Position numbers and translations under genes: made by a program. 64,000 bases of DNA from Escherichia coli. Its GTDB lineage: Bacteria > Pseudomonadota > Gammaproteobacteria > Enterobacterales > Enterobacteriaceae. The stretch lies in the NCBI RefSeq assembly GCF_003991155.1, contig NZ_CP031293.1. One strand, 5' to 3'. Below, in pieces: positions 770 through 22,260 of the stretch. Position 1 is the first letter of the stretch, and the number at the start of each line of letters is the position of its first letter. Under the pieces are notes generated by a model. It was given only the letters and a program-made list of their open reading frames with translations. It was not told the origin of the DNA and did not search any database.

Positions 770-3032
770 CCTGGATCTCCTTCGACAGTTCGACAAAGAA
801 GGCGCTGTATCCGGCAACGCGCACCACCAGCCCGGCATAATCTTGTGGGCGCTGTTGCGCTTCCCGCAACGTGTCGGCGTTCACCACGTTAAACTGAATA
901 TGCTGCAACTTAAGCTGGGTAAACGCCCGTAAGAAGTCGGCCAGTTTGCGTAATCCCGCTTCACCTTCCAGGGTCGCCGGAGTGAATTTCACGTTCAGCA
1001 ACGTACCGTTAGACAGCAGCGTATTATCGAGCTTACTGACTGACTTCAGTACCGCCGTTGGCCCTTGTGCGTCCTGGCCCAGCATGGGTGACAAGCCGCC
1101 GTCTGCCAGCTGTTCTCCGGCAAAACGACCGTCTGGCGTCGCGCCAACCACCGATCCCAACGGGACGTGAGCAGAAACGGTATACGATCCCGGCGTGAAG
1201 TAGCCGCCGCGCGGGTTCTGGTATTTTTCCACTTCTTTGCAGTAGTGGCGTAACAGTTCGGCGCTGATGTTATCCACCTCGTCGATATCGTTACCGTATT
1301 TCTCGAAGCGGTTAATTAAGCGAGCACGGACTTTTTCGCCTTCTGGCGTTGCGAAGTTGGCTTTTAATACCGACAGCAATTCGTCAAAACTTAAACGCTG
1401 TTGCTCAAAAACCATACCTTTCAACGCATGGAGAGAATCGCTCAGGTTGGCGATACCGATCCCCTGTACGCCGGAGAAGTTATAACGCGCACCGCCATCG
1501 GTAATATCGCGGCCTTTTTCCAGACAATCGCTGATAAACGATGAGAGCAGCGGTACAGGTGCCCAGTCACGGTGACCGATATCGCAAATATTGCTGCCCT
1601 CAACCATCAGGGTGATGTAGTGGCTGATCTTGGCGCGGATCTGCTCCAGTAAACCTTCATAAGTCAGCGCAGCATTGCCTTCATTTTCATGCAGGCAGAT
1701 TTCCATCACTTTCAGCAGATTAAACATCGCGATGTCATGCAAGCCGTAGGTTCTGCCGGGAATAGATAATTCCACACAGCCCACTACGGAATAGTCGCGT
1801 GCATCTTCCAGCGAAACGCCACGGTTGAGGAACGCTGGCACCACTACTTCATCGTTAAAGATTTGCGGAATACCGGTGCCGAGGCGAATGGTTTCGGCGG
1901 TTTTCATCAGGAACGGCGTGTCGATCAAGGCGTTAGTGCGCACCCCCAGGTTCGGTTGCGGTAATTGCACGCTTTGATAGGCGTCAAGGCAAAGGAACGA
2001 AAGCACGTTCACCGCGCTACGTCCGTTCTCGGTTAACCCGCCGAGCAGTGCGGTATAGCCGGTCGGGAAACCGGCGAAATAACGCGCGCTACTGGTGGAG
2101 CGCAACAGCACGATGTCGTTGCATTTCACCCATAAAGATTCGAGCAGTTCTTTCAGGAACGCCGGATCTTCGCCCTGGGTTAATGATGCCTGATAGAACG
2201 GCAACATATACTGGTCGAAGCGCCCTAAAGACAGCGAACTGGCGTTGGATTCGTATTGCAGAATGATGTTCATGTACCAGAACAACTGGCACGCTTGCCA
2301 GAACGTCTGCGGCTTATGTTCGGCGTTATGGCGAGAGATCTCCGCAATAGTCAGCAGTTCTTCGCGACGCTGGGCATCTGTGCAGTTTGCCGCCATCGTT
2401 TCCGCCAGTTCGGCGTAACGCAAAATGTGTTTCTGTGAGGCTTCGAGCAGTAACAGCGCTGCCTGATAAAAGTGATTCTCCGGCTGTTGCTGACAATGTT
2501 GCTGCATTTGCGCTACCAGCTCACCCAGCCCGTGATTCAGCAGGCGCGGGTAATCAATAATAATGTGCCCCTGGCCTTTATCCGTCTGGTTGATGCTGAA
2601 AATCTGCGTGCTGGTCGCGGCTTTTACTTCATCCGTCATCTGCCCGTTGATGAAATCTTTCATCGAACGTTTTTCCCAGTACGGGAACAACTCTTCGCGG
2701 TAGATACGTTTATCTTCTTCGCTGATAGCAAAGCGGTCCTGCGGACGCGTCGGGAATTGATCCAGCTCTTTCAGCAGCCAGTAAGGGTCCATTTCCGGCG
2801 ACATAATCCCGGCGCGTGGTTTTACGGTGCGGTTACCGGCAATCAGTTCTTCATCACGAATCGAAATTTCAACGTGTTCAAGGATATACGCTGTTGCTTT
2901 CGCCCGGCGCAATATCACCGGTTCGCCTTCGGTTTGCCGATGGCTGGCGGTATAAAGCAGCGCCCGCTCCAGCGAGATTTCACGGGTATTGGCAAACAGT
3001 GCAGTTTTGAGGCGAGAGATACGATTCGTCAT
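735..3032 (-). CDS. pflD: Formate acetyltransferase 2-like glycyl radical enzyme
   Basis: 765 aa ORF; C-terminal glycyl-radical region RVAGYSAFF; recognised as E. coli PflD; sits in the frwCB-pflDC arrangement. Confidence 0.93.
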   Translation of the reverse strand: MTNRISRLKTALFANTREISLERALLYTASHRQTEGEPVILRRAKATAYILEHVEISIRDEELIAGNRTVKPRAGIMSPEMDPYWLLKELDQFPTRPQDRFAISEEDKRIYREELFPYWEKRSMKDFINGQMTDEVKAATSTQIFSINQTDKGQGHIIIDYPRLLNHGLGELVAQMQQHCQQQPENHFYQAALLLLEASQKHILRYAELAETMAANCTDAQRREELLTIAEISRHNAEHKPQTFWQACQLFWYMNIILQYESNASSLSLGRFDQYMLPFYQASLTQGEDPAFLKELLESLWVKCNDIVLLRSTSSARYFAGFPTGYTALLGGLTENGRSAVNVLSFLCLDAYQSVQLPQPNLGVRTNALIDTPFLMKTAETIRLGTGIPQIFNDEVVVPAFLNRGVSLEDARDYSVVGCVELSIPGRTYGLHDIAMFNLLKVMEICLHENEGNAALTYEGLLEQIRAKISHYITLMVEGSNICDIGHRDWAPVPLLSSFISDCLEKGRDITDGGARYNFSGVQGIGIANLSDSLHALKGMVFEQQRLSFDELLSVLKANFATPEGEKVRARLINRFEKYGNDIDEVDNISAELLRHYCKEVEKYQNPRGGYFTPGSYTVSAHVPLGSVVGATPDGRFAGEQLADGGLSPMLGQDAQGPTAVLKSVSKLDNTLLSNGTLLNVKFTPATLEGEAGLRKLADFLRAFTQLKLQHIQFNVVNADTLREAQQRPQDYAGLVVRVAGYSAFFVELSKEIQDDIIRRTAHQL

Positions 3033-3082
3033 GAGGAACTCCTGTGGGAAAGCGAACCCGCCCTTACGGGCGGGATAAGAAC

Positions 3083-3403
3083 TTAAGCGGTTTGTGCCAG
3101 GTGAGCTTCAATTTTGCTCATAATGGCATCAGCGCGTTTTACCGCGTCGCTGATGTTGACGCGCACGATGGTCTTGCCAGCAAAACGCTCTTCAAACTTG
3201 ATGCCGATATCTTTGGTCAGAATCACCATATCGGCGCTCGCCACGTCTTCCGCAGTCAGTTCATTTTCCAGACCAATCGAGCCCTGGGTTTCTACTTTCA
3301 CTTCCCAGCCTTTCGCTTTCGCGGCACTTTCCAGCGCCTCTGCCGCCATATAGGTATGGGCAACACCAGATGGACACGCGGTTACTGCAATAATTTTCGT
3401 CAT
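3083..3403 (-). CDS. frwB: PTS fructose-like enzyme IIB component
   Basis: 106 aa ORF starting MTKIIAVTACPSGVAHTYMAAE with the IIB phospho-cysteine motif; position between frwC and pflD. Confidence 0.9.
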   Translation of the reverse strand: MTKIIAVTACPSGVAHTYMAAEALESAAKAKGWEVKVETQGSIGLENELTAEDVASADMVILTKDIGIKFEERFAGKTIVRVNISDAVKRADAIMSKIEAHLAQTA

Positions 3404-3417
3404 GGCTCGTTCCTCAA

Positions 3418-4497
3418 TTAATTAATTTCAAAATCCAAATCCAGGTCGTCTTCTTTTTCATCAGTCGAAGACCCATTTTTACGCGCCAGACTTTTCAGCA
3501 CGTTCACACAAACAGCCGTCACCACTGCTCCGACAGCCACTGCTGCGATATAACCCAGCTTGCCTTCAACCACCGGCAGCACAATCAGACCACCCCAGCC
3601 TGCATAGCACTGCGCACCGACCAGCGCCGCAGTTACTGCACCACAAACTGAACCGCTCATGATGGAAGGAATAACACGCAGCGGATCGGCAGCGGCGAAA
3701 GGAATCGCCCCTTCAGTAACCCCAACGCACCCCATCACCAGCGCCGCTTTACCGGTTTCGCGCTCTTCTGCGGAGAAATTTTTACGACCAATCAGCGTCG
3801 CCAGCCCCATCCCCAGCGGCGGAACACAAATCCCCACGGCAGCAATGGCCACCACGGTATAAACACCCTGAGCAACGCAAATCAGCATGAAGGCATAGGC
3901 CACTTTGTTAACCGGACCGCCCATATCGAACGCCAGCATCAGCCCCATGATCACCGCCAGCATAACAATGCTGCCCTGCTGCATCCCCTGTAGCCACTGA
4001 GTCAGGCTGTTGGTCAACGCCCCCACCGGCTCGCCCAGCCCCCACATCATGACGCCAGCGGTAATCAGTGTGCCGACGATTGGAATGATGAAGATTGGCA
4101 TCACCGAGCGCAGAACTTTATGCACCGGAATTTTCTTCAGGTAATGCACCACGATGCCGCCGATAATCCCGGCGATCAGTGCACCAAAGAAGCCCGCGCC
4201 AAAGCTGTTACCAACCCAGGCACCGATAGCGCATGGAGCCAGCGCAGAACGTTCTGCAATGGAATAACCGATGTAAGCGGCGAGGAAAGGCACCATCAGC
4301 GTCAAACCTGCAACGCCGATATCAAACAGTTTTTTCAGATTCGGATCGGCTACGGCATCCGGCACTGCGCCTTTGCCATACAACATGACGGAAACCGCCA
4401 GCAAAATACCGCCCGATACCACGAAGGGAATCATGTGTGAAACGCCCGTCATTAAATGCTGACGGGTATTTTTCAGGATCTGCACCAACTCATTCAT
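3418..4497 (-). CDS. frwC: PTS fructose-like enzyme IIC permease component
   Basis: 359 aa polytopic membrane protein ORF; synteny with frwB/pflD. Confidence 0.9.
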   Translation of the reverse strand: MNELVQILKNTRQHLMTGVSHMIPFVVSGGILLAVSVMLYGKGAVPDAVADPNLKKLFDIGVAGLTLMVPFLAAYIGYSIAERSALAPCAIGAWVGNSFGAGFFGALIAGIIGGIVVHYLKKIPVHKVLRSVMPIFIIPIVGTLITAGVMMWGLGEPVGALTNSLTQWLQGMQQGSIVMLAVIMGLMLAFDMGGPVNKVAYAFMLICVAQGVYTVVAIAAVGICVPPLGMGLATLIGRKNFSAEERETGKAALVMGCVGVTEGAIPFAAADPLRVIPSIMSGSVCGAVTAALVGAQCYAGWGGLIVLPVVEGKLGYIAAVAVGAVVTAVCVNVLKSLARKNGSSTDEKEDDLDLDFEIN

Positions 4498-4805
4498 AAG
4501 CTGCTCCCGGGCTTGCGAAAGCCCATGTCCATATTTTTGATGGAAGAAACAATAGGCAATCGCAGGCGGAGCAAACAGTGGATAAAAAGGCCATTTACTG
4601 GACTTTTGTAATATCAGTACAAAAATGCGATCCGCCTCATAACTTGCGATAATCCGGAAGCATGCCGCAAAACGGCGTCTTGTGAGACGCGTCGCAAATT
4701 GACGGTTACATTACATTTGTCCAGCTTTTGGCAGATTTGTCACATGGCAGGCCGTTACCGTGCGCTCTTATCCTGTAAACAGAAAACCGTACCGGGAGAA
4801 AGGCA

Positions 4806-7991: not shown

Positions 7992-9095
7992 ATGGACCGC
8001 ATTATTCAATCACCAGGTAAATACATCCAGGGCGCAGATGTAATTAATCGTCTGGGCGAGTACCTGAAGCCACTGGCGGAACGCTGGTTAGTGGTGGGTG
8101 ACAAATTTGTTTTAGGTTTTGCTCAATCCACTGTCGAGAAAAGCTTTAAAGATGCTGGACTGGTAGTAGAAATTGCGCCGTTTGGCGGTGAATGTTCGCA
8201 AAATGAGATCGACCGTCTGCGTGGCATCGCGGAGACTGCGCAGTGTGGCGCAATTCTCGGTATCGGTGGCGGAAAAACCCTCGATACTGCCAAAGCACTG
8301 GCACATTTCATGGGTGTTCCGGTAGCGATCGCACCGACTATCGCCTCTACCGACGCACCGTGCAGTGCGTTGTCTGTTATCTACACCGATGAGGGTGAGT
8401 TTGACCGCTATCTGATGTTGCCAAATAACCCGAATATGGTCATTGTCGACACCAAAATCGTCGCTGGCGCACCTGCACGTCTGTTAGCGGCGGGTATCGG
8501 CGATGCGCTGGCAACCTGGTTTGAAGCACGCGCCTGTTCCCGTAGCGGCGCGACCACCATGGCGGGCGGCAAGTGCACTCAGGCAGCGCTGGCACTGGCT
8601 GAACTGTGCTACAACACCCTGCTGGAAGAAGGCGAAAAAGCGATGCTTGCCGCCGAACAGCATGTAGTGACTCCGGCGCTGGAGCGCGTGATTGAAGCGA
8701 ACACCTATTTGAGCGGTGTTGGTTTTGAAAGCGGCGGGCTGGCGGCGGCACACGCGGTACATAACGGCCTGACCGCTATCCCGGACGCGCATCACTATTA
8801 TCATGGTGAAAAAGTGGCATTCGGTACGCTGACGCAGCTGGTTCTGGAAAACGCGCCGGTGGAGGAAATCGAAACCGTAGCTGCGCTTAGCCATGCGGTA
8901 GGTTTGCCAATAACTCTCGCTCAACTGGATATTAAAGAAGATGTCCCGGCGAAAATGCGAATTGTGGCAGAAGCGGCATGTGCAGAAGGTGAAACCATCC
9001 ACAACATGCCTGGCGGCGCAACGCCAGATCAGGTTTACGCCGCACTGCTGGTAGCTGACCAGTATGGACAACGTTTCCTGCAAGAGTGGGAATAA
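7992..9095 (+). CDS. gldA: Glycerol dehydrogenase
   Basis: 367 aa from [13 protein letters not shown]; iron-type alcohol dehydrogenase motifs ([12 protein letters not shown]); the ORF-track start at 7953 is an upstream in-frame extension overlapping fsaB. Confidence 0.93.
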
Positions 9096-9103
9096 CCTAC
9101 TCC

Positions 9104-9130
9104 AAACTCCCGGCTTGTCCGGGAGTTTGA
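9104..9130 (+). terminator. Hairpin immediately downstream of gldA (caaactcccgg-cttgt-ccgggagtttg)
   Basis: Perfect 11 bp inverted repeat 9 bp after the gldA stop; no strong T-run, so intrinsic-terminator function is uncertain. Confidence 0.5.
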
Positions 9131-9171
9131 GAGTGCAGGCAAAGTGGCTCACTCGTCACTGCGGGCATGTT

Positions 9172-9282
9172 TTTCCCCCTCGCCCTTTCAGGGAGAGGGG
9201 CGGGGTGAGGGTAAATATTCGCCCCGGAGCTGGCCTGTACCCCTCACCCTAACCCTCTCCCCAAAGGGGAGAGGGGACTGTT
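9172..9282. repeat. GC-rich imperfect palindromic intergenic repeat element (family not assigned)
   Basis: Segments gggagaggggcggggtgagggta and cccctcaccctaaccctctccccaaaggggagagggg are mutually complementary and internally palindromic; located in the gldA-yijF spacer. Confidence 0.5.
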
Positions 9283-9425
9283 CGAGCACTTTTTATACGT
9301 TATCACCCGTCTGAAACTCCCACGTTGTTCAGGAATTTTTTATCCGCTTCTGGACATTTTCTCCACAGAACAATCGTTAGCCCGGAAGGTCGAATCTGTG
9401 ACTCTTATTTTCACGGACGAAACAG

Positions 9426-10043
9426 ATGAAAGCTTCACTGGCGTTATTCAGTCTTCTGACGGTATTTACCAGTTACTCCTTAAAATCTCCCGCCGTTCCA
9501 CCAACCGTGGTACAAATCCAGGCCAACAGCAATCTTGCCATCGCAGACGGTGCCAGACAGCAAATCGGCAGCACGCTATTTTACGATCCGGCGTATGTGC
9601 AGCTTACCTATCCTGGCGGTGATGTCCCGCAAGAACGCGGCGTATGTTCCGATGTGGTGATCCGTGCATTGCGCAGCCAGAAGGTCGATTTGCAGAAACT
9701 GGTGCACGAAGATATGGCGAAGAATTTTGCTGCGTACCCGCAAAAATGGCAGTTAAAGCGCCCGGACAGCAACATCGATCACCGTCGGGTGCCTAATCTG
9801 GAAACCTGGTTTACCCGCCACGATAAAACACGCCCCACCAGCAAGAACCCCAGTGACTATCAATCGGGCGATATTGTCTCCTGGCGATTAGATAACGGGC
9901 TGGCACATATTGGGGTGGTGTCAGATGGCTTCGCCCGCGACGGTACGCCGCTGGTGATACATAACATTGGCGCAGGCGCGCAGGAAGAAGACGTGCTGTT
10001 TAGCTGGCGGATGGTGGGGCACTATCGGTATTTTGTTAAATAA
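9426..10043 (+). CDS. yijF: DUF1287-family secreted protein YijF
   Basis: 205 aa ORF with N-terminal signal peptide (MKASLALFSLLTVFTSYS); recognised as E. coli YijF; synteny. Confidence 0.88.
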   Translation: MKASLALFSLLTVFTSYSLKSPAVPPTVVQIQANSNLAIADGARQQIGSTLFYDPAYVQLTYPGGDVPQERGVCSDVVIRALRSQKVDLQKLVHEDMAKNFAAYPQKWQLKRPDSNIDHRRVPNLETWFTRHDKTRPTSKNPSDYQSGDIVSWRLDNGLAHIGVVSDGFARDGTPLVIHNIGAGAQEEDVLFSWRMVGHYRYFVK

Positions 10044-13576: not shown

Positions 13577-14470
<894 letters not shown>

Positions 14471-14510
14471 TTACCTCATCAATCGCTTGTAGTTATATGT
14501 TGTGTTGTGA

Positions 14511-14542
14511 ACATCTATCCATTTAGACGTCCAGATGTAAAG
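14511..14542 (-). promoter_or_regulatory. Candidate MetJ operator (tandem met-boxes) upstream of metF
   Basis: On the metF strand the sequence reads ctttacatctggacgtctaaatggatagatgt, i.e. tandem 8-bp units resembling the AGACGTCT met-box consensus, about 45-75 bp upstream of the metF start. Confidence 0.55.
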
Positions 14543-14848
14543 ATGAAGGAAAAGCCGAGGGGCGTCAACCGAAAAATGACCAATGATGGTGAGGAAAAAT
14601 CAGGGAAGTTGAAAAAAACTCATCTTAATTAGAGGCGATAAAAGATTTCTCTATAGCGCAATCCACCTCGCACGTTTTGACTGATATTCTGACAACACAG
14701 CGACACCTGGGCTTATTCGAAAAACAACGTCCTGCCACCGGATGGTGATGCTAAGGCATCTGATTCGGCCTGCGCCCTCGCGTAGGCCGAATACTGGATC
14801 TGCAAAATCAACGGGTAACAAACAGATGAATCAACTCAATACGTACTT

Positions 14849-16408
14849 TTACTTGATATCTTTCACGCGCATACCGTTGATCTGTTCATCCGTGATGGTG
14901 TTACCCGCTTTGAAGTAATCAACCACGGCGTGATAAACGTAATAACCGCCCGTTGTGTTACGCGCTTTCCCTTCGGTAAAGGCGGTAAAACCATCTCCAC
15001 CATCAGCAAGGAAACTCTGGGTGGCAATAGAATAAACTGTCGCATCTTCAATGGGTTTGCCATTCAGAGTCAGTGTGATTACCCGCTGACCAACCGGTTT
15101 GCTGCTGTCGTACTTCATTTCCAGGCCTTTCGATACCTGTAAAACGCCATTACTTAAACTTGCGCCGTGTTCCATCAAACTGCGTAATTGTTTACCCGTG
15201 AGTTCCATCGTCACCAGTTCGTTGGGGAACGGGAAGGTACTGATGACGCCGCCCATCGTAATCGCCCCTGCGGGGATCTCATTGCGAATGCCGCCAGAGT
15301 TGGTTAACGCCAATTGGGTGTTTTTACCCGCCGCTACCAGTAAAGCATCAGCCGCCAGGTTCCCGAGGGAAGCCGATTCACCATAGGCACGTTTTAATTC
15401 AACCGGCGATTGCGCGACCGTTTGTTGCACCACTTCATCAAGCTTTTTATTCCAGCCGTCGATCACCTGTTTTGTTTGCGGATCGGGCTTCCACTCGTCG
15501 GCGTAAATGGTTTTAAGCTCGAAGTTTTTCACCGTAAAATCATGCGGCTTCTCTTTGTAGTCCAGTACCAGTTTACCGACATCAATCCCACCGCTGTCAG
15601 TGGAGAGGATGAGCGTATTGCCGACTTTAATCGGTTCCGGCGTACCCACATGTGCATGCCCGGTGATCAAAATATCCAGCCCTTTCACCTGACTTGCCGT
15701 CTGAATATCTTTATCCAGTGCGCGGCGCACATCTGTGCCCCCCATACTGGACTGGCGGGCCGGAACACCTTCGTGAATCAGCGCAACGGTCAAATCAACC
15801 TTGCCTTTGAGTTCATCGATATAACGTTGTAGCCATTTAATTTCATCACGCGCCTCAATACCCACTCGCGTTGCCGCAGATACCGTATCATTAAAGGCAA
15901 ATACACCGTGCAAACCAATCACGCCAATTTTCACGCCGTCTTTTTCAATGATGGTATAGGGCTTATCCCAGAATGATTTACTGCTGTTCTGATAAAAAAC
16001 ATTACCCTGCACAATCGGGAATTTTGCCTGACTCAACTGTAATAACGTATTGTCCCAGCCGTGATCAAATTCATGATTACCTATAGTGACCGCATCGAAT
16101 GGCATGGTATTCATAATATCGATAATCGCCTTGCCTTTAGTCAGGCTGCTGATATACGGCCCGGTAAAATAGTCACCCGCATCAAAAAACCAGGTCGCTT
16201 TGTTTTTAGCTTTTTCTTGTTTAACAAGCGTAGTGATATTTGCCCAGCCGCCAATATCTCGTTTACCGTCAGCAATCCACGGCACTTTATAAGGCTCTAC
16301 ATGTGCATGGAGGTCGTTGGTATAAATGATGGTGACATCTTTGGCGCAAGCCCAAAACGGCAGTGTTAATGCGATACCCGCAGCAAGCATTTTAATTTTC
16401 ATAAACAA
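14849..16408 (-). CDS. Secreted 5'-nucleotidase-family metallophosphoesterase, paralog 1
   Basis: 519 aa; N-terminal signal peptide; calcineurin-like phosphoesterase motifs [32 protein letters not shown]; C-terminal 5'-nucleotidase-type motifs (FPFPNEL, GGDGF). Confidence 0.85.
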
Positions 16409-16534
16409 TCCCTTCCAGTGAGATAAAGGATTGCTACATTACGTTCTGAAAGGCTTTTTTATGTGAGAATACTCACATCCAGAGGCGATAACTGTAGGAC
16501 AAAATCAACGACCTTATGAAATCGTTGGTGATAT

Positions 16535-17662
16535 ATGTCAAATCTGTTTGCGATTAATGTCTGTAAAACGTTCGGTTGTCGAAATTTGGGATTGGCCTCA
16601 TCGGAAGATTACAGTTGGCCAGACTATAAACTGGGTTTTCCGGCACTGCACTGCCAGGCATGCGGAAGTTACCCCCCTTTGTTTGATGAACAACAATTTC
16701 GTGACTGGTTGTCAGTTCACATGACTGCGTGTGCCATAGAAACAGGGCATTTTTGTCCATCATGCTATTGTAAAGAAAAGATTTTTTATGGCCACAACCC
16801 GCAGGGAACACAACGCGTTCAATGCCGTTCATGCAAAAAAGTCTGGACTCCGAAACAGCAGCCAGCAAGAGAAATTACGTATCCCCAGTCCATTGAAACC
16901 GTTCAACTGTTCATGCCCTTTCAAGGAGCCAGCGCAGTACAAAAGCTCTATGTTTTAGTCAGTCTTGACGCCACTCGTGGCAACATCCTTCATCTCTCCA
17001 CGAATTATACGCAACATCAGACAGGAGACAGTCTGCGGTACAGTTACAGAGGCAATACAGAACCAACTGAGCACCATAGCGATATTGTGCAGAGGGTAGA
17101 TATGCGTGAAGCGCAATTCTTGCGCCGGAGCCAGTTCGATGAAATTCAGTATGGCAGTGCTGTGCTCAAGCGCAATGGCAAGGGAGCCATACTACGCCCG
17201 GTTATCACGGCACACGGGCATTTCAGAATACTGAAAATCCGCTTTCCACATGTCAAAACGCATATCATTTCACACGAATGTTTTCTGAGAGGCGCAATTA
17301 TTACAGCCTGGGCAGATCAGTTCCGCCAACAACAAGGCGAACTTTGGTTCGTAGAAGAAGAAATCAGCGACCGTAACGCTGATATTCCCTGGCATTTTCA
17401 GGGAACGACATACCATGGTTGGTGGCAAAATCAGTGGCAACGCTGGGGGCAGGGGAATAACAGCAAGATGGTCTGCCTGCTCACAGGAGTCTCCTTAGAA
17501 AGGGGCGCAAATGTTTCTCTGGCAACCAGTCGTTGCTTTATCACATGGCTGACAGACCAACACGACTTTACCCAAAGCGCGTTATTATCCGCAGGTCGCG
17601 TAACGAAAATGCTGACCTCACTGGCGTTAAAATACAATGAATCGCTCACTCCATCTTGTTAG
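16535..17662 (+). CDS. Hypothetical Cys-rich protein (multiple CxxC pairs, possible zinc ribbon); function unknown
   Basis: 375 aa ORF; no signal peptide or TM segment; N-terminal CKTFGC, CQAC, CPSCYC, CRSC motifs; divergent from paralog 1 and upstream of paralogs 2 and 3. Confidence 0.6.
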   Translation: MSNLFAINVCKTFGCRNLGLASSEDYSWPDYKLGFPALHCQACGSYPPLFDEQQFRDWLSVHMTACAIETGHFCPSCYCKEKIFYGHNPQGTQRVQCRSCKKVWTPKQQPAREITYPQSIETVQLFMPFQGASAVQKLYVLVSLDATRGNILHLSTNYTQHQTGDSLRYSYRGNTEPTEHHSDIVQRVDMREAQFLRRSQFDEIQYGSAVLKRNGKGAILRPVITAHGHFRILKIRFPHVKTHIISHECFLRGAIITAWADQFRQQQGELWFVEEEISDRNADIPWHFQGTTYHGWWQNQWQRWGQGNNSKMVCLLTGVSLERGANVSLATSRCFITWLTDQHDFTQSALLSAGRVTKMLTSLALKYNESLTPSC

Positions 17663-17891
17663 TCAATACACTCGACAAACGACCATAAATTAATGGGATC
17701 ACTATTTCTCATTTAATTAAATATATGAATGTATGACTGAAAAATATAATCACAGTCAATGTTTAATTAATAACATTATTTGTTACTAAGATCACATAAT
17801 ACTTTCCTGACCTATGCTTACATAAAAATAAGACACGGTGTTCCTTTTATTTAAATAATTCAACCAATGTAACAACCCCTATCAAGGAGGG

Positions 17892-19445
17892 ATGATGAGA
17901 ACTGTATTTACGACTTTATCAGTCATATTCAGCGTGATGTTTTCTCACAGTATACTAGCTCAGGACGTTACTATTTATTATACGAATGATATTCACGCAC
18001 ATGTCAATCCGGCAAAAATTCCCGCTGTTGATAAGAACAGACTTGTAGGTGGTATGGCTAATATTGCAGGCATCGTTAATGAAGCGAAGAAAAAAAACAA
18101 AGATGTCTTTTTCTTTGATGCAGGCGACTATTTTACCGGTCCGTATATCAGTACCCTGACCAAAGGTGAAGCTATTATTGATATCATGAACACCATGCCC
18201 TTTGATGCGGTGTCCGTTGGTAATCACGAGTTCGATCACGGCGTGCCCAATATGGTATCTCAGTTATCAAAAGCAAAATTCCCCATTCTGCTGGGAAATA
18301 TTTACTACACCGATACAAATAAACCAGTTTGGGATCATCCGTGGACCATTATCGAAAAAGATGGTTTAAAGATTGGTGTGATTGGATTGCATGGTGCATT
18401 CGCTTTCTATGATACAGTCGCGGCAAAAGCACGTGAAGGCGTAGAAGCCAGAGACGAAATTAAATATTTAAATAAAGCACTTGCAGAATTAAAAGGTAAA
18501 GTCGACATTACCGTTTTGCTAATTCACGAAGGTGTTCCGGCGCGTCAATCAAGCTTTGGTAGTAAAGATGTGGAGCGGCTACTACAGGCAGATATTGAGA
18601 CAGCTAAAAAAGTGAATGGTGTTGATGTCTTAATTACCGGTCACGCACATGTCGGAACACCGCAACCAATAAAAGTTAATAACACATTAATTGTATCTAC
18701 CGATGCATACGGCACCGACATCGGAAAACTTGTGCTTGATTACAATCCGAAAACAAAGAAAATTGATAGTTATAATGGTGAGTTAATCACCATCTTTGCA
18801 GATCAATTTAAACCTGACACCATCGTTCAAAATACTATCGATAAATGGAGCGTAAAACTTAACAAAATAACACAGGAAGTTGTCGGCCATTCTCCCGTAG
18901 TTTTAACACGTGAGTATGGCAGTTCTTCTTCTACCGGTAATCTTATTCTGGATGCAATGATGGAAAAAACACCTGATGCCATTGCCGGATTTCAAAATAG
19001 CGGTGGGATGCGAGCTGATTTTCCTAAAGGTGATATCACACTGGGAGATGTTATTAGCACATTCCCCTTTAATAATGACCTCATCGAGATGGATTTGACG
19101 GGCCGCGATCTCAAATCGTTGATGACGCATGCAACCAATCTAACTAACGGTGTGTTACAGGTTTCAAAAAGCGTTGCGGTTGTCTATGACAGCAAAAAAC
19201 CACTCAACCAACGGTTAATCTCTTTCACCATTAACGGCAAACCCGTGGAAGATAATCAAACATATCGTATTGCCACGCACTCCTTTTGTGCCAGTGGTGG
19301 TGACGGTTTTGAAGCATTTTTGAATGGAAAAAATGTGAAGACGATACCGGGAACAACCTCGGCGGAATCTATCATCGATTATTTCAAAAATCATAAACCT
19401 GTCACCCCAGACTTAACTAAACGAGTCATGGACGTCGCCAAATAA
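17892..19445 (+). CDS. Secreted 5'-nucleotidase-family metallophosphoesterase, paralog 2
   Basis: 517 aa; signal peptide ending SILA-QD; same phosphoesterase motif set ([32 protein letters not shown]); SD aggagg upstream; the true start may be the second ATG at 17895. Confidence 0.85.
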   Translation: MMRTVFTTLSVIFSVMFSHSILAQDVTIYYTNDIHAHVNPAKIPAVDKNRLVGGMANIAGIVNEAKKKNKDVFFFDAGDYFTGPYISTLTKGEAIIDIMNTMPFDAVSVGNHEFDHGVPNMVSQLSKAKFPILLGNIYYTDTNKPVWDHPWTIIEKDGLKIGVIGLHGAFAFYDTVAAKAREGVEARDEIKYLNKALAELKGKVDITVLLIHEGVPARQSSFGSKDVERLLQADIETAKKVNGVDVLITGHAHVGTPQPIKVNNTLIVSTDAYGTDIGKLVLDYNPKTKKIDSYNGELITIFADQFKPDTIVQNTIDKWSVKLNKITQEVVGHSPVVLTREYGSSSSTGNLILDAMMEKTPDAIAGFQNSGGMRADFPKGDITLGDVISTFPFNNDLIEMDLTGRDLKSLMTHATNLTNGVLQVSKSVAVVYDSKKPLNQRLISFTINGKPVEDNQTYRIATHSFCASGGDGFEAFLNGKNVKTIPGTTSAESIIDYFKNHKPVTPDLTKRVMDVAK

Positions 19446-19485
19446 AATATCATTTATCAGTCTATATATTTAACAAGGAATGCGA

Positions 19486-21105
19486 ATGAAAACAGTGCAG
19501 CGTACTTTACTTGCCGCAACATTGCTGACTATTTTTTCGGTCTCAGTCATGGCGCAGGATGTCACGATTATTTATACAAATGATCTTCACGCTCATGTGG
19601 ATTCTTATAAAGTGCCGTATATCGCAGACGGAAAACGCGACATTGGCGGCTTTGCCAATATATCTACTTTAGTAAAACAAGAGAAAGCGAAAAATAAAGC
19701 CACCTTTTATTTTGATGCTGGAGACTATTTCACCGGCCCTTATATCAGCAGTCTGACAAAGGGCGAAGCAATAATTGACATTATGAATACCATGCCTTTT
19801 GACGCAGTATCAATCGGTAATCATGAGTTTGACCATGGCTGGGATAATGCCCTGCGACAATTAAGCAAAGCGAATTTTCCTGTTTTATTGGGCAATGTTT
19901 ATCATAAAGAGAGTGAGAACCCCTTCTGGAACAAGCCCTACACCATCCTGGAAAAAGATGGCATCAAGATTGGTATTATTGGGCTACACGGCGTATTTGC
20001 ATTTAATGATACGGTCTCGGAGCTCTCTCTCCAGGGACTCGATAATGACAATAATAACCGCTTTGATAAATCTTCCGAGACCCTTAAGAATCAGGGGATT
20101 GAAGCACGTGATGAAGTGAAGTATTTGCAGCATTATATCGACGAGTTACGTGATAAGGTTGACCTCACTGTGGCGCTGGTTCATGAAGGCGTTCCGGCGC
20201 GTCAGTCCAGCATTGGCAATACAGATGTTAGACGCGCTCTTGATAAAGATATTCAAACCGCTAGCAAGGTGAAAGGATTGGATATTCTGATTACCGGGCA
20301 TGCCCACGTCGGAACGCCAGAACCAATCAAAGTCGGCAACACCTTAATCCTTTCGACTGATAGTGGCGGTATCGATATTGGTAAATTAGTCCTTGATGTC
20401 AACCCTACAGCTCGTACCCATAAAATGAAGAGCTTTGAGCTGAAAACAGTTTATGCCGATGAATGGATACCCGATCCAACGACACAAAAAGTTATCAATG
20501 GCTGGAATAAAAAACTGGCGGATATTGTACGCCAACCAGTAGGTGAATCATCGATTGCATTAACTCGCGCCTATGGTGAGTCATCGCAACTAGGCAACCT
20601 GTTTACCGATGCAATGCTTGTCGCTGCTCCGACTGCACAGATTGCATTGATAAACTCCGGCAGCTTACGTGCGGATATAAATGCAGGCACGATTACCTTT
20701 GGCGACATTACCAGTACATTCCCCTTCAAGAATGAACTTACTGAAATGGATCTCAGCGGTAAGGATCTGCGTAACCTACTGGAACACGGGGCATCGCTTA
20801 CCAATGGCATCCTGCAAATGTCAAAAGGCGCAGAAATGCGCTATACCCCGCAGAAACCAGTAGGTCAGCGCATAGTATCTTTTAAAATTAATGGTGAAGA
20901 GATCGTTGATACGAATATTTACCATGTTGCAACAACGACTTTCCTTGCACTGGGGGGCGATGGTTTTCTGGCATTCAAAGAAGGGAAAAATGTTCAGGTC
21001 CGCGCCGGAAATAACATGTCCGATGTCGTGATCGATTATTTGAAGAAAGGCCACAAGATTACGCCTGCACAGGTAAATGAAATGCGGGTGGACGTTAGCA
21101 AATAA
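19486..21105 (+). CDS. Secreted 5'-nucleotidase-family metallophosphoesterase, paralog 3 (closest to paralog 1, with an extra low-complexity insert)
   Basis: About 539 aa from MKTVQRTLLAATLL (the ORF track starts two codons earlier at 19480); signal peptide VMA-QD; motifs as in paralog 1; insert SELSLQGLDNDNNNRFDKSSETLKNQ absent from paralogs 1 and 2. Confidence 0.85.
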   Translation: MKTVQRTLLAATLLTIFSVSVMAQDVTIIYTNDLHAHVDSYKVPYIADGKRDIGGFANISTLVKQEKAKNKATFYFDAGDYFTGPYISSLTKGEAIIDIMNTMPFDAVSIGNHEFDHGWDNALRQLSKANFPVLLGNVYHKESENPFWNKPYTILEKDGIKIGIIGLHGVFAFNDTVSELSLQGLDNDNNNRFDKSSETLKNQGIEARDEVKYLQHYIDELRDKVDLTVALVHEGVPARQSSIGNTDVRRALDKDIQTASKVKGLDILITGHAHVGTPEPIKVGNTLILSTDSGGIDIGKLVLDVNPTARTHKMKSFELKTVYADEWIPDPTTQKVINGWNKKLADIVRQPVGESSIALTRAYGESSQLGNLFTDAMLVAAPTAQIALINSGSLRADINAGTITFGDITSTFPFKNELTEMDLSGKDLRNLLEHGASLTNGILQMSKGAEMRYTPQKPVGQRIVSFKINGEEIVDTNIYHVATTTFLALGGDGFLAFKEGKNVQVRAGNNMSDVVIDYLKKGHKITPAQVNEMRVDVSK

Positions 21106-21117
21106 TAAAAAAATTAT

Positions 21118-21150
21118 AATGCCATTCATTCACTGAATGGCATTATTTTT
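21118..21150 (+). terminator. Intrinsic terminator after nucleotidase paralog 3
   Basis: Perfect palindrome aatgccattcattcactgaatggcatt followed by attttt. Confidence 0.65.
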
Positions 21151-21183
21151 CTCTAAATCAACAATAGATAATGAGATATATTT

Positions 21184-22044
21184 ATGTGTATAAAAAAGCA
21201 CGGGATAGCGTTATCGATTCTATTAATACCTTGCATTGGAAACGCTCAGGAAATTAAAAGTGAGGAAGGCTGGTTACATCAAAGCTTGAATGTCATTGGT
21301 CGCACAGACTCTCGCTTTGGCCCAAGGCTGACTAACGACCTCTACCCTGAATATACTGTAGCAGGAAGAAAAGACTGGTTTGATTTTTATGGTTATGTTG
21401 ATCTACCAAAATTCTTTGGCGTCGGCAGTCACTATGATGTTGGGATCTGGGATGAGGGCTCACCCCTATTTACGGAAATAGAACCTCGGTTTTCCATTGA
21501 CAAATTGACCGGATTAAATCTTGCGTTCGGCCCTTTTAAAGAATGGTTCATTGCAAACAACTATGTCTATGATATGGGTGACAACCAGTCATCCCGGCAA
21601 AGTACATGGTATATGGGGCTTGGTACAGATATCGACACGGGTCTACCAATTAAGCTTTCTGCCAATATATACGCCAAGTATCAGTGGCAAAACTATGGTG
21701 CCGCTAATGAAAATGAATGGGACGGATATCGATTCAAAATAAAATATAGCATTCCTCTTACCCATTTATTCGGAGGGCGATTGGTATACAATAGTTTTAC
21801 TAACTTTGATTTTGGCTCCGATCTTGCGGACAAATCACACAATAATAAACGAACCAGTAATGCTATTGCTTCAAGCCATATCCTTTCCCTGCTATATGAA
21901 CACTGGAAATTTGCATTTACACTACGTTATTTTCACAACGGTGGACAATGGAATGCTGGGGAGAAAGTTAACTTCGGAGATGGTCCATTTGAATTAAAAA
22001 ACACAGGATGGGGAACCTATACTACTATTGGTTATCAATTTTAA
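21184..22044 (+). CDS. Tsx-family outer-membrane nucleoside-specific channel protein (paralog of tsx)
   Basis: 286 aa; signal peptide; shares recalled Tsx blocks [79 protein letters not shown]; ends in a C-terminal aromatic residue (GYQF) typical of beta-barrels. Confidence 0.85.
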
Positions 22045-22221
22045 ATCAGGTGATGTTTTAGATATTTTTACTTAATGCCATTTTGTAATTGTCATAAATA
22101 ACTTCACCATTCACACTGTGAATTCATCGCTCAACACAAAAGCCCCCTTATTACCGGGGCACTGACCAAAGGCAAAATGACAATCAATCACCACCTCCGC
22201 AGGAGGTGGTTTAGAGGTGAC

Positions 22222-22250
22222 AACAAAAGCTGGCAACTGCCAGCTTTTGT
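22222..22250 (-). terminator. metL terminator hairpin (aaaagctggc-aact-gccagctttt)
   Basis: Perfect 10 bp inverted repeat flanked by A/T runs, about 12 bp downstream of the metL stop. Confidence 0.7.
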
Positions 22251-22260
22251 TCAATAATCA

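Follow-up and report, generated by a model that had tools for sequence, protein, structure and literature searches.

Expression of the nucleoside catabolism genes of Escherichia coli (tsx, deo, nupC, nupG, udp and cdd) is controlled by CytR/DeoR and CRP. The product of tsx is an outer-membrane protein for nucleoside-specific diffusion and the receptor for phage T6 and colicin K; the canonical protein lets through nucleosides, not nucleotides. In the insertion sequence IS1, an InsA-type zinc ribbon is a DNA-binding module. We analyzed a 64-kb stretch of an E. coli genome (contig NZ_CP031293.1), called the window throughout, in which five genes lie between metF and metL. They encode three 5'-nucleotidase-family proteins (NT1, NT2 and NT3), a paralogue of Tsx (TSXL) and a cysteine-rich protein (CYS). 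The region is known as "GR 31 (metL..metF)" from a 2026 comparison of the avian pathogenic E. coli (APEC) strain BEN2908 with B2 strains of extraintestinal pathogenic (ExPEC) and adherent-invasive (AIEC) E. coli, where it was absent from MG1655 and a role in nucleotide and nucleoside processing was proposed (PMC12928451).

The reading that we favor, and regard as reasonably probable, is that metF-metL is a three-state locus. It would consist of an ancient NT1-CYS unit, extended here by a divergent CYS allele with NT2, NT3 and TSXL and lost in K-12, and would serve CRP-dependent periplasmic scavenging from nucleotide to nucleoside under a transposase-derived regulator.

Three states of the metF-metL locus

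Bases 14400-22300 of the window are 100% identical to E. coli 2016C-3878, and all five open reading frames match both the positions first assigned to them and the RefSeq annotation of that strain. The gene order is katG (-), metF (-), NT1 (-), CYS (+), NT2 (+), NT3 (+), TSXL (+), metL (-), metB (-), with the following features:

13577-14467, minus strand: metF, the left flank
14468-14617: conserved metF upstream region (promoter and met boxes), common to all locus states; left anchor of the variable segment
14618-22260: segment differing from K-12, 7,643 bp here against 198 bp of unrelated filler in K-12
14849-16402, minus strand: NT1, predicted periplasmic two-domain 5'-nucleotidase-family metallophosphoesterase, 517 aa
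16453-22260: segment specific to the five-gene haplotype, 5.8 kb, with a divergent CYS allele, NT2, NT3 and TSXL in place of the resident CYS
16535-17662, plus strand: CYS, predicted cytoplasmic protein of 375 aa with two Cys4 zinc ribbons and an RNase-H-like (transposase/integrase) fold
17892/17895-19445, plus strand: NT2, paralogous, predicted periplasmic 5'-nucleotidase, 58% identical to NT1
19480/19486-21105, plus strand: NT3, paralogous, predicted periplasmic 5'-nucleotidase, 66% identical to NT1
21184-22044, plus strand: TSXL, outer-membrane Tsx paralogue, 286 aa
22261-24693, minus strand: metL, the right flank

The metF-metL spacer of K-12 ER3413 measures 348 bp. Its first 150 bp correspond to 14468-14617 of the window (97% identity to K-12, 75-85% to other genera) and are followed by the 198-bp filler; K-12 homology stops at 14617 and resumes exactly at the metL stop codon. 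The initial annotation had described a cluster of about 7.5 kb that is absent from K-12, where it took metL and metF to be adjacent and a few hundred bp apart. The comparison agrees on both points, and the three nucleotidase-like paralogues, the Tsx-like channel and the Cys-rich protein were all found where it had put them. The filler includes a palindrome resembling repetitive extragenic palindromic (REP) elements and had no match in the window or in the 40-odd related loci compared, which come from other Escherichia species and other genera. A 44-codon "hypothetical protein" annotated by RefSeq in the K-12 spacer (WP_000660586.1; L002, locus 4144-4278) straddles the point at which the conserved metF upstream region gives way to the filler, and a longer spurious open reading frame (14129-14632) runs over the same region in the window.

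The states were counted in 5,426 complete E. coli genomes, a sample biased to clinical isolates, so that percentages describe the database and not nature. The empty, K-12-type state with its filler was present in 3,579 genomes (66%). NT1 and CYS were found in 1,844 genomes, about 1184 of which (about 22% of the collection) had no added genes, while 658-660 (12%) had the five-gene state with NT2, NT3 and TSXL as well. Together, these three states account for almost the whole collection. The counts support variability of the cluster within the species. The NT2-NT3-TSXL segment was single-copy and chromosomal in every E. coli carrier counted. Genome searches with the DNA of the locus also returned two plasmid matches.

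Outgroups were surveyed by a CYS-family scan of one genome per species, followed by gene mapping. At least ten other genera or species carry NT1 (-) and CYS (+) at the metF-metL site: Citrobacter youngae, C. braakii, C. portucalensis and C. werkmanii; Klebsiella pneumoniae, K. oxytoca and K. spallanzanii; Kosakonia, Phytobacter, Kluyvera, Superficieibacter and Pseudocitrobacter (including Pseudocitrobacter cyperus); and Salmonella enterica arizonae, Escherichia whittamii and a cryptic Escherichia clade. The NT1 protein is 87-99% identical to its metF-metL orthologues across genera, with a ratio of non-synonymous to synonymous substitution rates (dN/dS) of 0.02-0.05, as in core genes; within E. 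coli, the NT1 genes of five-gene and two-gene strains are 94-100% identical in DNA. Because the pair sits at metF-metL in so many genera, it is most parsimoniously taken as ancestral there and the K-12-type state as a deletion or replacement, which would make the K-12 gene order the derived state at this site.

The alternative is one horizontally acquired island spanning all 7.6 kb, put into an ancestrally K-12-like spacer; the initial annotation had likewise treated the cluster as one acquired unit. Absence from K-12 and from 66% of the genomes would suit such an island, as would a GC content that is under that of the flanks throughout. It is nevertheless very unlikely and already contradicted by outgroup synteny: NT1 and CYS occupy this exact position in many genera, NT1 evolves like a core gene, the K-12 filler has no counterpart in the related loci, and another strain holds truncated remnants of both genes. 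Only 16453-22260 is haplotype-specific. The remnants represent a fourth state, L044 (NZ_AP027877.1 4380612-4389107; locus 1498-4705), with the order metF, a phosphotransferase system (PTS) EIIC gene, a MalI-like regulator, truncated NT1, truncated CYS and metL. NT1 is reduced to its C-terminal 165 codons and CYS to its C-terminal end, the internal deletion having taken out the divergent promoter and both 5' ends.

The origin of the five-gene haplotype was examined by comparison with the two-gene strain GF131, to which the window is identical through 16452 and from which it diverges from 16453, inside the NT1/CYS promoter region. Sliding identity drops sharply after NT1, and CYS DNA is 63-78% identical to the two-gene alleles; the synonymous divergence (dS) between haplotypes is 1.6 for CYS versus 0.33 for NT1. 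Because identity breaks at 16453 and CYS diverges far more than NT1, the haplotype appears to have arisen when a foreign CYS allele, together with NT2-NT3-TSXL, replaced the resident CYS. The GC content at third codon positions (GC3) was 0.51 for NT1, 0.47 for CYS, 0.37 for NT2, 0.44 for NT3 and 0.37 for TSXL, against a median of 0.58 and a 10th percentile of 0.49 for 44 long open reading frames of the window. The atypical composition suspected at the outset therefore holds for the right two-thirds of the cluster, 16453-22260 (0.37-0.47), and not for NT1, which falls in the window's range.

NT2-NT3-TSXL was not at metF-metL outside E. coli in the loci surveyed. No recent donor was found among the genomes searched; outside E. 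coli, the closest relatives of NT2 reach only 76% identity and lie at another locus, in the order CYS-like / NT2-Tsx-NT3. Related five- or six-gene modules away from metF-metL (L015, L012, L033 and L037), in the order NT3-Tsx-NT2(-NT2)-NT1 / CYS, occur in Enterobacter, Citrobacter, cryptic Escherichia and, as a second locus, some E. coli. One of the latter, SCPM-O-B-8794 (L015, contig 31), has an off-site module plus a two-gene metF-metL locus. The five-gene haplotype itself falls into two allele groups: 97 genomes are >=99% identical to the window, which belongs to this rarer group, and the remaining 563, the ExPEC type among them, show about 96.6% identity. Since it marks B2 ExPEC lineages and a second, rarer allele group, the haplotype is usable as a population marker and is a candidate fitness locus.

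The initial annotation had reported no integrase, tRNA or flanking direct repeats, and this was upheld: there is no integrase among the cluster genes of the window, the tRNA scan was empty at the locus, and the repeat search for island borders and insertion sequence ends found no flanking direct or inverted repeats. That search returned only the paralogy of NT1, NT2 and NT3 and short chance-level matches, among them a 16-nt pair around CYS (16456-16471 / 17813-17828) that does not occur in two-gene strains. An Rfam scan of 14000-22600 at E<=0.1 gave no match, PADLOC defense models matched none of the five proteins, and PHROGs gave only a weak transposase zinc-ribbon match, to CYS.

Several further observations were made around the locus. 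Between metF and NT1, several species have 1.5-5.6 kb of extra genes (L006, L008, L009, L017-L020, L022, L030 and L045), in Pseudocitrobacter cyperus a LysR regulator and a carboxymuconolactone-decarboxylase-like gene; the locus thus varies at a second spot, on the side next to metF. In two-gene E. coli, the CYS frame overlaps the 3' end of the convergent metL by 37 bp (L003, 7230-7266; L004, 6230-6266; L043, 6781-6817), so that the last CYS residues are coded opposite the metL C-terminus with no terminator in between. In Pseudocitrobacter vendiensis (L006), NT1 is 98% identical to that of the window, compared with 94% for metF, 93% for metL and 89% for katG. This excess hints that Escherichia and Pseudocitrobacter have exchanged NT1 or that the gene is unusually constrained.

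The transposase-related protein CYS

The eight conserved cysteines of CYS make up two Cys4 ribbons, and the protein has an RNase-H-like catalytic-core fold of the transposase/integrase type. Matches of the second ribbon to InsA/IS1 are weak but consistent. For the InsA zinc ribbon (PF03811), the E-value was 0.043 for the window protein, while 8 of 53 family members reached <=1e-3 (best 1.4e-7); against the NCBIfam model for IS1, CYS scored 20 bits, where the cut-off is 100. A conserved DDE triad was not seen in the family, as judged from the alignment of the 53 members. Position 145 is acidic in only 40 of these, and E/D248 is the one universally acidic position; the invariant residues are R198 and H229, to which H247 and E/D248 come close. 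When a CYS-family profile was run against the PDB, the only matches were eukaryotic zinc fingers sharing the Cys pattern, which were judged uninformative.

CYS is not behaving as a transposase, because it is single-copy (and always chromosomal in the E. coli counted), syntenic across genera, under purifying selection (dN/dS 0.10-0.24) and without an acidic triad, and because the repeat search found no terminal inverted repeats or target duplications around it. It is apparently transposase-derived and domesticated rather than mobile. The initial annotation had noted a Cys-rich protein divergent from the first nucleotidase; its position and orientation were correct, and this apparent domestication does not fit a neutral passenger. 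An active IS1-like transposase, with the cluster as a composite mobile element, would account for the weak IS1/InsA matches and for the frequent automatic annotation of relatives in databases as "IS1 family transposase". We consider it extremely improbable in view of the constant single chromosomal copy, the missing repeats and duplications, the long-standing synteny with purifying selection, the missing DDE triad and a score so far from the IS1 cut-off.

The family is small, with 138 representatives among 1.84 billion proteins. By the AlphaFold database (AFDB), it is confined to Enterobacterales and Vibrionales; the genome scan adds Motilimonas, which we take to be a member of Alteromonadales. 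We examined eight loci with distant relatives, 19-27% identical to CYS. Genes for nucleotide or nucleoside scavenging adjoin the relative in all eight, and in five the neighbor is a 5'-nucleotidase. One locus has an operon of a porin, a class-B acid phosphatase (AphA-like) and a class-II phosphodiesterase (PDEase_II), another has nupC with a nucleoside phosphorylase (PNP), and another has deoD-tal-deoB-nupC with add downstream. CYS is divergent in four of the distant loci and in Enterobacteriaceae, in which the control region is shared and conserved.

CYS is probably the regulator of NT1, as a candidate DNA-binding protein. More tentatively, and as a possibility that we rate somewhat short of even, the uncharacterized CYS family of Enterobacterales, Vibrionales and Alteromonadales may have been domesticated for the dedicated transcriptional control of genes that scavenge nucleotides and nucleosides, with the degenerate RNase-H-like domain re-purposed as a ligand sensor. 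Its gene set would comprise 5'-nucleotidases, Tsx or porin channels, AphA-like and phosphodiesterase-like phosphoesterases, deo and nupC. If this is true, CYS is a bacterial case of an insertion sequence transposase turned metabolic regulator; nothing relevant to a described transposase-derived nucleoside regulator came up in the literature search. The association with scavenging genes across gamma-proteobacteria makes the family a testable candidate for a new regulator family.

CYS could alternatively be an enzymatic or structural partner instead of a transcription factor, for example a metal-dependent RNase-H-like nuclease in nucleotide catabolism. The fold itself, the invariant R198 and H229 with the nearly invariant H247 and E/D248, and the co-directional placement just downstream of a nucleotidase in four distant loci are what such a partner would predict. 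The missing acidic triad, the DNA-binding role of the InsA-type ribbon in IS1, and the divergent arrangement in Enterobacteriaceae and four distant loci, with the shared conserved control region, argue against it. Moreover, the partner genes differ in fold and in cell compartment, which suits a regulator better than an enzyme complex. We therefore regard the partner role as unlikely and retain the regulator as the preferred role of CYS.

Control regions, gene products and proposed function

The following control regions and hairpins were located:

16403-16534: NT1/CYS divergent control region, 132 bp, with blocks invariant across genera (17 loci aligned, two locus types)
16462-16477: predicted perfect CRP core TGTGAGAATACTCACA, its center lying 67.5 nt from the ATG of NT1 and 65.5 nt from that of CYS
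16506-16527: CAACGA-N10-TCGTTG inverted repeat immediately before the CYS start, with an invariant right half, AAATCGTTGGT; candidate operator
17663-17891: AT-rich spacer, 28% GC, the presumed NT2-NT3-TSXL promoter region
14764-14791: hairpin downstream of NT1, 8-9 bp stem, no U-tract, z -1.8
21116-21146: AT-rich hairpin between NT3 and TSXL, 13-bp stem with T-runs on both sides; possible partial terminator
22190-22210 and 22222-22251: two strong hairpins between the convergent TSXL and metL, z -5.4 and -8.1; bidirectional terminator region

The CRP core at 16462-16477 is the only zero-mismatch core in the 64-kb window. In 20 related loci, the site is perfect in 14 and has one mismatch in 4 more, and the pattern TGTGA-N6-TCACA is conserved in the orthologous NT1/CYS promoters. 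The invariant blocks of the 17-locus alignment, which are TTACGTTCTGAAAG, CAAAAT and the AAATCGTTGGT half of the inverted repeat, are candidate promoter or operator elements; blocks and inverted repeat recur in an unlinked module (L054). Because the CRP core is conserved, we infer catabolite-controlled expression like that of known nucleoside catabolic genes, for which CYS would be the specific regulator here. Of the smaller features named by the initial annotation, the AT-rich spacers are exemplified by 17663-17891, the metL-side terminator hairpin is a strong one, and the palindrome downstream of NT1 exists and folds; a candidate for the REP-like label, it is present in a single copy in the window at up to 3 mismatches.

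Pairwise identities among the paralogues NT1, NT2 and NT3 are 54-66%. The Metallophos (PF00149) and 5_nucleotid_C (PF02872) domains are recorded on the cluster representative of NT2 and on NT1 orthologues, and NCBIfam alignments are full-length. All three have intact D-x-H, G-D, G-N-H-E-x-D, H and G-H-x-H motifs as well as the substrate motifs of the C-terminal domain; preserved metal and active sites were also reported for the GR 31 nucleotidases (PMC12928451). They belong to the two-domain 5'-nucleotidase family as a distinct subfamily of predicted phosphoesterases, and would be exported, judging from signal-peptide-like N-termini. NCBIfam scores were 152-166 bits for UshA (cut-off 600), 121-133 for NadN (436), 83-103 for CpdB (486) and 148-154 for SoxB (550), so far below the equivalog cut-offs that a substrate is not assignable by homology. 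NT3 differs from NT1 and NT2 by a 20-residue Asn/Asp-rich insertion (19999-20070, residues about 179-199, starting LQGLDNDNNNRFDKSSE), which sits between metallophosphatase motifs III and IV.

TSXL scored 492 bits against NCBIfam NF011686 (cut-off 311), and its alignment with E. coli Tsx spans the full barrel (1TLW; residues 29-286, E 1e-114); by homology, it is a putative Tsx-type outer-membrane nucleoside channel. The Tsx proteins of the off-site modules are 57-59% identical to TSXL.

The gene content fits the initial suggestion of periplasmic nucleotide-to-nucleoside scavenging, an idea also published for GR 31 (PMC12928451). Under carbon limitation, cAMP-CRP would activate the divergent promoters, and extracellular nucleotides reaching the periplasm would be dephosphorylated by NT1-3, whose three paralogues may widen the substrate range. 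TSXL would add outer-membrane capacity for nucleosides or related compounds, and the products would enter the cell via the core Nup transporters. Dedicated regulation would fall to CYS, which would bind DNA and probably sense a nucleoside or nucleotide.

Several points weigh against this proposal. CYS has no recognized helix-turn-helix, and four of the eight distant loci place it downstream of the nucleotidase instead of divergent from it, an arrangement that also fits a non-regulatory partner. All three nucleotidases score far under every curated equivalog cut-off (UshA, NadN, CpdB and SoxB), and a Tsx restricted to nucleosides would make a pairing with nucleotidases not self-evident. The CRP-like site upstream of NT2 (17781-17796) has one mismatch and lies in a presumed promoter region. 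NT3 is annotated as frameshifted in the uropathogenic E. coli (UPEC) strain 26-1 (L042, locus 8084-9702), so the full set is not kept in every carrier. Finally, the literature search turned up no experiments on the five genes, and CFT073 locus tags, WP accessions and PDB codes led to noise or nothing.

The module could instead be mainly a device for host interaction or virulence, which degrades signaling nucleotides (extracellular ATP, NAD or cyclic dinucleotides) or makes adenosine. Such a function would explain an enrichment in extraintestinal pathogenic lineages: of the 660 carriers, 563 have the allele that typifies the B2 ExPEC/APEC/AIEC strains in which GR 31 was defined, and relatives in the family include NadN and ecto-nucleotidases of the CD73 type. 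However, the enzymes are predicted to be periplasmic and not surface-anchored, the core pair is kept in environmental and commensal Enterobacteriaceae, and the genome collection is skewed to clinical isolates. Predicted CRP control and the neighborhoods of distant CYS relatives (deo, nupC and add) point to catabolism. We consider a primary host-interaction role improbable and prefer nutrient scavenging.

Comparison with described systems

The cluster is an ordinary accessory metabolic module that is already catalogued in ExPEC comparative genomics. Its most interesting element is the transposase-derived CYS family, a candidate new class of regulator. New here are the putative InsA-type zinc ribbon and the RNase-H/transposase-like fold of CYS without a conserved DDE triad, its single copy under purifying selection with distant relatives beside scavenging genes in eight of eight loci, and the predicted perfect CRP site in the NT1/CYS divergent promoter, conserved across genera. 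The window and GR 31 share locus, gene order and proposed role, with about 95-97% identity between the window and the B2 allele. The published account treats the region as a whole, does not split the ancestral NT1 and CYS from the added operon, and its table has no characterization of CYS.

NT1-3 resemble UshA (the periplasmic UDP-sugar hydrolase/5'-nucleotidase of E. coli), NadN, CpdB, YfkN and CD73 in their metallophosphatase and 5'-nucleotidase C-terminal architecture, their motifs and their predicted export. They differ from UshA, NadN, CpdB and SoxB in scoring far under the cut-offs, in forming a distinct subfamily and in the presence of three paralogues at one locus. Residues 19-517 of NT1 are near-identical, with few substitutions, to the PDB entries 3IVD/3IVE ("Nucleotidase"), which we take, as an unconfirmed assumption, to be a structural-genomics entry of CFT073 c4898 with bound pyrimidine nucleosides. 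No functional paper on these entries was found in the literature search. One third of sequenced E. coli and many other Enterobacteriaceae retain this conserved nucleotidase, for which a crystal structure but no functional study was found.

TSXL passes the subfamily cut-off for Tsx, with the full 1TLW barrel aligned, and is about two-thirds identical to Tsx (67% to Salmonella Tsx; PMC12928451). Unlike Tsx, it is a second, accessory copy, linked to nucleotidases rather than to the tsx locus. CYS is like InsA/InsAB' of IS1 in having a putative InsA-type Cys4 zinc ribbon followed by an RNase-H-like core, and differs in its extra N-terminal ribbon, single copy, synteny, purifying selection, and lack of a DDE triad and inverted repeats. 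As in the CytR/DeoR-CRP system, a CRP consensus lies in the promoter region of nucleoside- or nucleotide-related genes, and distant CYS relatives adjoin deoD, deoB, nupC and add. In contrast to CytR and DeoR, the candidate specific regulator, CYS, is unrelated to the LacI or DeoR families.

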